64,000 bases of DNA from Escherichia phage DCP2. A program made the translations under genes and the position numbers. Positions 9,608 through 11,002 of this stretch are shown here, one piece after another. The first letter of the stretch is position 1, and each line of letters opens with the position of its first letter. Below the pieces are notes generated by a model, which was not told where the DNA came from, made no database searches, and saw nothing but the letters and a program-made list of their open reading frames with translations. Location: sequence record OR780565.1; one strand, given 5' to 3'.

Positions 9608-9640
9608 GTTTACTTTCTCAGCTTGCTGTGGTATTATAAA
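9608..9640 (+). promoter_or_regulatory. T4-type early promoter
   Basis: GTTTAC 9608-9613, -10 TATTATAAA about 17 bp downstream. Confidence 0.6.
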
Positions 9641-9662
9641 ATAAACTGCTGAGGATAATATA

Positions 9663-10223
9663 ATGATTAATAAAATTGTACATGAAATGGCTTTAAACGG
9701 AGATTCATATAAAATATCTGCCGTAGTTGAAAATTTCATACTTAATAAAGTAAAAGAATATTTCACTGATTGTTCAGTTAGTTATCAAGAAAAAATGGTT
9801 TTAATCGACGATACTGAAAAATCAAATAATTTGTTTTGTTCGAATTTTACAACTAAGAAGCGTACTAGAAGATTTGATATTGTCATTTCTCGCAATGGTA
9901 AAAAGCATATAATTGAAATCAAACACCAAGTTGGTGGAGGTACAGCCATTGATTCGGTTGGAATATATCTGGAAGATAAAGATAAATTAAAAGAATACAC
10001 AAAAACTGAAAATCCTGTGTCATTGATGATATTAGATTTTTTGCCATGCGGATATTATCCGCGTAATAAGTGGACAAAAAGAGAATCATTTACTGATAAT
10101 CCAACCATCCAAGCAAGGTTTAATGAATATGCTAAATCACAAAACGTGTTAGTATTACTATCAAATACATATGATGAAGAATTATATAATTCGTTTTTTG
10201 CTGCAATAAATGAGAGAATATAA
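9663..10223 (+). CDS. putative PD-(D/E)xK-type nuclease-like protein (186 aa), translationally coupled to dam
   Basis: GAGGA RBS; motif [19 protein letters not shown] (hydrophobic-D, 12 residues, ExK); stop TAA overlaps dam ATG (TAATG). Confidence 0.55.
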
Positions 10224-11002
10224 TGCTAGGAGCTATTGCGTATACAGGTAATAAACAATCATTATTACCTGAACTTAAGTCTCACTTTCCAAAATATGAC
10301 AGATTCGTAGATTTATTTTGCGGAGGGTTATCAGTATCTTTGAATGTCGATGGTCCTGTATTGGCTAATGATATTCAAGAACCAATTATTGAAATGTATA
10401 AACGTCTTATTAGCGTGTCATGGGATGACGTTTTAAAAGTAATAAAGCAATACAAATTATCAAAAACATCAAAAGAAGAGTTTTTGAAATTACGTGAAGA
10501 TTATAATAAAACTAGAGATCCTCTTTTACTTTATGTTCTTCATTTTCATGGGTTTAGTAATATGATTCGCATAAACGACAAAGGAAATTTTACTACTCCA
10601 TTTGGAAAAAGAACCATAAACAAAAATAGTGAAAAACGTTTTAATCACTTTAAACAAAATTGTGATAAAATAATTTTTAGCTCATTGCATTTTAAAGATG
10701 TCAAAATTCTAGATGGCGATTTTGTATATGTGGATCCTCCGTATCTTATAACAGTCGCTGATTATAATAAATTTTGGTCAGAAGACGAAGAAAAAGACCT
10801 TTTAAATCTTTTAGACTCTTTAAATGACAGAGGAATAAAATTTGGACTGTCGAATGTTTTAGAGCATCACGGAAAGGAAAACACTCTTCTTAAAGAATGG
10901 TCTAAAAAATATAATGTTAAGCATCTTAATAAAAAATACGTCTTTAACATATATCATTCCAAAGAAAAGAATGGAACTGACGAAGTATATATTTTTAATT
11001 AA
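10223..11002 (+). CDS. dam: Dam DNA N6-adenine methyltransferase
   Basis: 259 aa; SAM-binding FCGGLS and catalytic DPPY motifs; matches T4/T2 Dam. Confidence 0.92.

Follow-up and report, generated by a model that had tools for sequence, protein, structure and literature searches.

The DNA analysed, a stretch of 64,000 nucleotides from Escherichia phage DCP2 (sequence record OR780565.1; hereafter the window), is a Tequatrovirus (T4-type) segment, and its positions 9300-10300 are 100% identical to those of phages vB_EcoM_P8, BMB16, and G28. At the locus studied here, the genes follow one another in the order spackle, 61.1, primase gene 61, an antisense open reading frame (ORF) of 66 aa, a nuclease-like ORF, dam, and the dCTPase gene 56, and it is the pair of nuclease-like ORF and dam that is considered in the following. 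The ORF occupies positions 9663-10223 of the plus strand (ATG at 9663, TAA at 10221-10223), encodes a 186-aa protein resembling PD-(D/E)xK restriction endonucleases, belongs to phrog_8706, a family without assigned function in PHROGs, and is preceded by a GAGGA ribosome-binding site (9651-9655, plus strand) 7 nt before the ATG. Its stop codon overlaps the start codon of dam in the sequence TAATG (10221-10225, plus strand). The dam gene (10223-11002, plus strand) codes for a D12-class N6-adenine DNA methyltransferase of 259 aa (Pfam MethyltransfD12, E 1e-50) with a DPPY motif and, at ~95% nucleotide identity, is the same gene as T4 dam. The extent of the ORF, the ribosome-binding site, the stop/start overlap, and the DPPY motif had all been named in an initial annotation of the locus and could be read directly from the DNA. 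That annotation had also assigned the ORF its own early promoter. A site resembling T4 early promoters, gTTTACt-17 nt-TG-n-TATTAT, does exist at 9609-9637 of the plus strand (TTTACT-17-TATTAT spacing with TG upstream), is kept in T2, and coincides with a promoter annotated in two GenBank relatives, but promoter-like sites are no more numerous in the region than in shuffled sequences, so that the pattern alone is weak and the site is regarded as a candidate.

Comparison of the ORF with its counterparts in T2 and in a relative from IMG/VR gave ratios of nonsynonymous to synonymous substitution rates (dN/dS) of 0.02-0.06, and a ratio of 0.17 was obtained with Dhakavirus MX01. Because these ratios are low and because residues D72, E85, and K87 of the product are invariant across 10 homologues, the nuclease-like ORF is, as judged from its evolution, a genuine gene under strong purifying selection and no chance ORF. 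The family to which it belongs is tiny, with 11 clusters recovered by profile search among 1.84 billion representative proteins and a single locus in IMG/VR. Neither the 72,556 plasmids searched nor the 5,426 genomes of E. coli contained a homologue, and no bacterial source was found there. In the GenBank record of phage Shinka the ORF is labeled "putative restriction endonuclease". Literature searches on ORFs next to T2 dam, on restriction enzymes of Tequatroviruses, and on DpnII-like enzymes of phages returned no description of the ORF, with the limit that the 1988 paper on the sequencing of T2 dam lay outside their coverage, so that an earlier mention is possible.

The predicted catalytic core of the ORF product comprises residues 69-87 (9867-9923, plus strand), with D72 at 9876-9878, E85 at 9915-9917, and K87 at 9921-9923, and lies on the two strands of a predicted beta-hairpin (residues 66-77 and 80-87). 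In the alignment of the 10 homologues, which reaches down to 29% identity, E23, D72, E85, K87, H88, Q89, and the block G93-T-A-I-D-S98 are invariant. An AlphaFold2 model calculated from a seven-sequence alignment (mean pLDDT 78.6, pTM 0.77) places E23 on helix 1 and D72 and E85-I-K87 on neighboring hairpin strands and has the topology alpha-beta-beta-beta-alpha-beta, the order typical of PD-(D/E)xK enzymes, with the acidic residue on strand 2, the (D/E)-x-K element on strand 3, and conservation of both throughout the family. When the model was compared with the PDB using Foldseek, every match was a PD-(D/E)xK nuclease, the nuclease domains of Can2/Card1, McrC, Bax1, and XisH being among the high-ranking ones. 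The PD-(D/E)xK arrangement pointed out in the initial annotation is thus borne out by a catalytic triad that is invariant among homologues, and the structure search that it had proposed returned a nuclease fold, with no non-nuclease fold among the Foldseek matches. A PD-(D/E)xK nuclease fold is therefore supported by the model, and the ORF product is probably a compact, Mg-dependent DNA endonuclease, predicted to form a homodimer. According to the model, it consists of one small domain with no obvious methyl-reader module, and by its fold it belongs with the EcoRI/MunI-like branch among type II restriction enzymes.

No curated family model is matched by the protein above its threshold. Against Pfam DpnII (PF04556), the window protein scored 16.7 bits (E 0.0048), which is below the gathering threshold of 23 bits, and weak Pfam matches to BanI and HsdR-N were obtained as well. 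When the members of the phage family were scanned individually, DpnII was the top Pfam family for 5 of 10 (best E 8.3e-5), and 4 of the 10 matched the PADLOC model REase_II PDLC03548, a type II endonuclease model of 290 positions (best E 5.3e-6). A profile-profile alignment with hhalign between the phage family and 13 aligned DpnII-family proteins, a set that includes a 99% match to a PF04556 protein and a DpnII fragment from Streptococcus pneumoniae, gave a probability of 35% (E 4e-4) and paired E23, D72, and E85 with the invariant E152, D201, and E214 of DpnII. The match is limited to profile positions 153-233 of 278, and the 186-aa protein does not extend over the full-length architecture of about 280 aa. 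NCBIfam gave no match for the ORF product, PDB sequence searches with the single protein and with the profile returned nothing meaningful, no GIY-YIG or HNH domain was matched in Pfam, and no DpnI-type or winged-helix reader was found among the structure and family matches.

DpnII nevertheless provides the best family-model matches of the phage nuclease, with pairing of the E, D, and E catalytic positions, and the partner methylase in DpnII/MboI restriction-modification systems belongs to the same D12 Dam family as the product of the window dam; T4 Dam is homologous to DpnM and to E. coli Dam. The differences are that DpnII has ~288 aa, that the third catalytic position reads E-x-N in the aligned DpnII proteins and the classical E-x-K in the phage ORF, and that the phage pair resides in a lytic phage with hypermodified DNA, has the nuclease gene before the methylase gene, and is translationally coupled. 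On these comparisons, membership of the DpnII family is not established. With respect to the MunI (C/AATTG) and EcoRI-like type IIP branch, the motifs E-x-K-H-Q and G-x-A-I-(D/E) of the phage protein are also present in EcoRI, as verified in its sequence, whereas sequence identity is 13% and the spacing of the motifs is 5 residues in the phage ORF and 26 in EcoRI. As hhalign gave a probability of 0.2%, kinship with EcoRI was dropped except as a lead at the level of motifs.

The connection between the nuclease-like gene and dam extends well beyond the window. In 7 of 8 lineages, the nuclease gene abuts or overlaps (by 1-35 nt) a gene for a D12 methylase, T2 with a gap of 13 nt being the exception. 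Such junctions are seen in MX01, in KPV15, and at the loci L006, L007, L008, and L013, and the loci of homologues P0006 and P0009 display the same abutting arrangement. The homologue in KPV15, a Klebsiella Jiaodavirus, has 44% identity and also extends into the start of dam, the pair being located there between a denB-like gene and a topoisomerase gene instead of between 61 and 56. In the metagenomic homologues P0011 and P0014 (225-227 aa, 37-39% identity) the overlap with the D12 methylase gene amounts to 35 and 20 nt, one of these two pairs being located directly upstream of rIIA. With R standing for the nuclease gene, three genome contexts of the pair can thus be distinguished: 61-[R-dam]-56, denB..[R-dam]..topoisomerase, and [R-dam]-rIIA. 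The identities of nuclease and methylase to their window counterparts drop together, with values of 99/98, 63/76, 57/72, 50/64, 44/63, 39/54, and 37/57%, and the nuclease diverges faster than the methylase in every lineage compared. The coupling to a GATC-type Dam that the initial annotation had suggested from the TAATG overlap is accordingly a conserved property of the pair.

The ORF is essentially full-length in 154 phage records (148 DNA matches and 6 Klebsiella phage records); dam adjoins it in every one, and the ORF without dam was never encountered. The reverse state, dam without the ORF, arose at least 2 times, in the T4-type deletion described below and in Jiaodaviruses of the KP179/KP182 type. 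In four Jiaodavirus records (KP179 twice, KP182, and AShe-2020a), dam is accompanied by no more than the final ~29 nt of the nuclease gene; here the nuclease was lost a second time, independently, while the methylase was kept.

The 61/56 locus itself was surveyed in 503 records sharing the end of gene 61, and three states were distinguished. Both the ORF and dam are present in ~150 records, among them all T2 records; dam only is present in ~35 records including T4, whose collinearity with the window ends at 9594 and resumes at 10136; and neither gene is present in ~320 of the 503 records (ime09, RB14, RB18, PP01, Shfl2, and others), which lack exactly 9569-11001, the alignment of ime09 with the window running to 9568 and resuming at 11002. 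Among Tequatroviruses a cassette of 1,433 bp (9569-11001, plus strand) comprising the candidate promoter, the nuclease-like ORF, and dam is thus present or absent as a unit. Dhakavirus MX01 has the same order 61-[ORF-dam]-56, and its identities to the window are 63% for the ORF and 76% for Dam, compared to 64% for the flanking gene 61 and 70% for gene 56. As the divergence of ORF and Dam brackets that of the flanking core genes, the cassette is old at this locus, and its absence from Tequatroviruses is, from these alignments, most simply read as loss.

In T4-type phages the missing segment has 541 bp (9595-10135, plus strand) and is bounded by the 8-bp repeats ATCGCAAA (9587-9594) and ATCACAAA (10128-10135). 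The deletion took the promoter-like site and the first 473 of the 561 nt of the ORF (84%), so that T4 Dam differs from its counterpart in the window in having neither the upstream promoter nor most of the nuclease gene, and left 88 nt of the ORF 3' end (10136-10223, plus strand) as a non-coding remnant before dam, in which T4 matches residues 159-179. In terms of sequence, T4 is a secondary 541-bp deletion derivative in which the nuclease was lost and an orphan Dam was kept. The initial annotation had described gene 61 of T4 as being closely followed by dam and had tentatively taken the ORF for cargo inserted between the two. That description is only roughly right, as 309 bp, in which the unannotated antisense ORF and the 88-nt remnant lie, separate the genes in T4. 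The comparison of this junction with T4, T2, and relatives, which the annotation had proposed, does find T4 without most of the ORF, but for the reason of a deletion. An insertion relative to T4 is ruled out by the deletion between repeats and by the old divergence of the cassette; the unit that comes and goes is ORF and dam jointly.

A run of six T at 10194-10199 (plus strand) is shortened to five in T2, where the resulting frameshift replaces the last eight residues FAAINERI by LLQ and places the stop codon 13 nt before the ATG of dam, by which ORF and dam become uncoupled; by sequence comparison the T4 remnant shares the run of five. Homopolymer runs of this length have been described as reversible frameshift sites in T2 and T4, in work that does not mention the ORF (10.1101/2025.10.21.683753, preprint). 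The 61/56 interval and its surroundings are also a hot spot for mobile nuclease genes: Yersinia phage PYPS2T has a homing endonuclease gene in the slot of the cassette (930-1613 of the examined locus) and an HNH gene after gene 56, and T4 has segF just beyond gene 56 (2931 onward in the examined T4 locus).

Where the nuclease gene has been lost in KP182, directly upstream of dam, another gene pair is found. Its first gene codes for a 210-aa protein with a D...D-x-K core of its own (KVDIVASKNGETLVIDVK) that showed only weak family matches, to Hjc, Cas4, and DruK, and overlaps by 17 nt a gene for a second D12 methylase with ~30% identity to Dam. KP179 likewise carries a second small PD-(D/E)xK protein whose gene overlaps that of a different D12 methylase. 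A 62%-identical homologue of the KP182 protein is present in Salmonella phage STML-198 (Gelderlandvirus), where the overlap with the D12 methylase gene is 4 nt, and the STML-198 protein was found independently as the third-best viral structural neighbor of the window ORF model. The pairs of this second, unrelated family (a nuclease-like protein of 205-210 aa and a D12 methylase) are located at 14-1466 of the KP182 locus and at 1801-3260 of the STML-198 locus. Judging from both families, a small nuclease gene followed by an overlapping D12 methylase gene is a recurrent module in Tevenvirinae.

Taken together, the invariant catalytic triad and the conserved coupling to a GATC-type Dam make the restriction-modification-like module already considered in the initial annotation the best-supported reading, and we assign a probability of roughly 0.55 to the view that ORF and dam form a phage-borne module of type II restriction-modification character, its cleavage activity, specificity, and target being predictions. 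As is characteristic for type II systems, the genes for endonuclease and methyltransferase are adjacent and inherited together, and a lone methylase is tolerated while a lone endonuclease was never seen, a pattern to which the few independent events lend weak support. GATC is the candidate recognition site because the partner methylase is ~95% identical to T4 dam, which specifies a GATC methylase, because DpnII is the only repeated family signal, and because the branch of the fold fits enzymes that generate 4-nt 5' overhangs; methylation of the site would then block the nuclease. Such a module might work as follows. A single promoter would give early synthesis of both proteins, and dam would be translated in coupling with the nuclease gene, such that no nuclease appears without the methylase. 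The infecting genome would enter already methylated, and any DNA in the cell not marked by Dam, GATC being the most plausible site, would be cut. An order in which the nuclease precedes the methylase would be dangerous on entry into a naive bacterium and safe for a virus whose genome is methylated. T4 would have lost the nuclease by deletion between the short repeats and continued with Dam as an orphan. Enterobacterial hosts are Dam-positive, and the host chromosome is therefore not a likely target; the targets would instead be unmethylated foreign DNA such as that of co-infecting or superinfecting phages, including the ~60% of Tequatroviruses without dam, which presupposes that the nuclease tolerates hydroxymethylcytosine (HMC) or glucosyl-HMC.

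Viruses that encode restriction-modification functions are known, for instance chlorella viruses with CviAI (GATC) and M.CviAI, and prophage P1 with EcoP1I, and like the module proposed here they combine a site-specific nuclease with a protecting adenine methylase. Those viruses have ordinary bases, however, and their nucleases act on host DNA or in the defense of the lysogen. With a host that is already Dam-methylated and phage DNA containing glucosyl-HMC, the target in the present case must differ.

Several points weigh against a restriction-modification-like module. The sequence links to DpnII all fall below curated thresholds and cover the catalytic core only, a core that is generic to PD-(D/E)xK enzymes. 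In a Dam-positive host there would be hardly any substrate for a nuclease that GATC methylation inhibits, and every GATC of T-even DNA bears glucosyl-HMC, a modification that stops most type II enzymes, so that a natural substrate may be lacking. In T2, the carrier that has been studied best, the C-terminus of the ORF product is altered by a frameshift. Among close relatives, linkage trivially explains adjacency to dam, and with two loss events only, the asymmetry of loss is suggestive and not statistical. Dam is also under purifying selection where the nuclease is gone, as in T4 and many other genera; it therefore serves a purpose independent of the nuclease and is not necessarily an antidote.

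Other functions can be imagined for a nuclease of this fold that is tied to Dam. It might serve outside restriction, as a MutH-like nickase that acts at hemimethylated GATC and starts repair or recombination-dependent replication, as a junction-resolving or repair enzyme, or as a non-catalytic DNA-binding partner of Dam. The PD-(D/E)xK fold is used in many roles, as the high-ranking Can2/Card1, McrC, Bax1, and XisH matches illustrate, the best weak matches of the second family represented by KP182 are Hjc and Cas4, and the strand discrimination by MutH, which is directed by Dam, offers a precedent. We nevertheless consider such roles unlikely, as the only family models matched repeatedly are those of restriction enzymes, the invariant catalytic residues speak against a non-catalytic partner, and two thirds of the close relatives manage without the gene, which is not what is expected of a replication or repair function. 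Somewhat more doubtful still is a selfish endonuclease of the homing type, which during co-infection would cleave the genomes of relatives without the cassette close to their unoccupied 61/56 junction and have the cassette copied by repair, with dam as cargo or as protection of the donor's own site. The clean presence/absence polymorphism at a single locus would fit such an element, as would the homing endonuclease of PYPS2T in the same slot and the position of T4 segF. A locus-specific homing enzyme would however not be expected to occur in three genome contexts and always with dam, the divergence between the Tequatrovirus and Dhakavirus copies equals that of flanking core genes and so indicates long vertical residence with no recent invasion, and the GIY-YIG and HNH motifs of the T4 seg/mob enzymes are lacking.

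The least probable of these alternatives, in our estimate, is a methylation-dependent nuclease comparable to DpnI that cuts Dam-methylated cytosine DNA, that is, the host chromosome, in a "mark and cut" breakdown of host DNA during which glucosyl-HMC shields the phage genome and phage Dam tops up or extends host methylation. Dam-positive hosts would supply abundant substrate for an enzyme with the nuclease fold established here, T-even phages degrade host DNA with cytosine-specific nucleases, and the KPV15 pair is located two genes from a gene for a denB-like endonuclease IV. With host Dam sufficing for the mark, on the other hand, the nuclease could persist without phage dam, and genomes with the ORF only were never seen; moreover, the closest relatives in sequence and structure are methylation-sensitive type IIP enzymes (MunI and the DpnII family), no DpnI-type or winged-helix reader is found among the matches, and the single small domain has no obvious methyl-reader module.

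The frequency of GATC was considered in connection with specificity. Of the sixteen palindromes of 4 bp, none is as depleted in the window as GATC (65 observed versus 214 expected, ratio 0.30). It is likewise the most under-represented one in T4 (1-50000), which has dam only, and in ime09 (20000-60000), which is cassette-less, with a ratio of 0.36 in both, and TCGA comes next at ~0.6. With depletion this similar in the three states, it was discarded as evidence of specificity. GATC avoidance has long been known in enterobacteriophages and has been attributed to host MutH and Dam; the depletion is compatible with this host-based explanation and with a speculative inter-phage one alike.

The purpose of Dam in T2 and T4 has been unclear since the 1970s, dam mutants are not known to have a clear phenotype, and the enzyme has been regarded as an orphan methylase. 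In about one third of T4-type phages, T2 among them, the nuclease-like ORF is present and joined end-to-start with dam. Under the restriction-modification-like reading, T4 Dam would be the surviving half of a two-gene module for cutting and protecting, the nuclease half of which was deleted, and the question of its purpose would become directly testable in natural isolates that keep both genes. A very small family of restriction-like enzymes, of 186 aa in the window and with about a dozen sequence clusters so far confined to T4-like phages, would be added to those known, restriction-modification logic would be found in a strictly lytic phage with hypermodified DNA, and exclusion among related phages by what may be a new mechanism would be of relevance to the design of phage cocktails. 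One may go further and suppose a weapon used by phages against other phages, in which T-even Dam serves as antidote and the nuclease cuts unmethylated GATC even in DNA with HMC or glucosyl-HMC, a proposal that is speculative and in our opinion improbable. If it held, cassette phages would destroy co-infecting or superinfecting T-even relatives without dam or convert them by break-induced recombination, long exposure of the T-even gene pool would explain GATC depletion (0.30-0.36) whatever the present dam status, and compact pairs of a nuclease and a D12 methylase, with at least 2 nuclease families, would make up a general class of inter-phage exclusion modules in Tevenvirinae.

Two further observations concern the neighborhood of the pair. 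The 66-aa antisense ORF (9358-9558, minus strand; phrog_2024) lies tail-to-tail with gene 61, encodes a product with two hydrophobic stretches, and has a strong AAGGAGG ribosome-binding site and a late-promoter-like gATAAATA ~25 nt upstream. It is intact in the DNA of T4, T2, and ime09 and unannotated in the T4 reference AF158101.6, and a plus-strand terminator-like hairpin (9524-9543) lies inside it. Farther upstream, gene 61.2 is missing from the window at 8152-8165, where 12 nt separate spackle (7859-8152) from 61.1 (8165-8329). Phage P8, though identical to the window over 9300-10300, carries a 627-nt gene 61.2 (annotated adfA, anti-DarT factor A), which is also present in T4.

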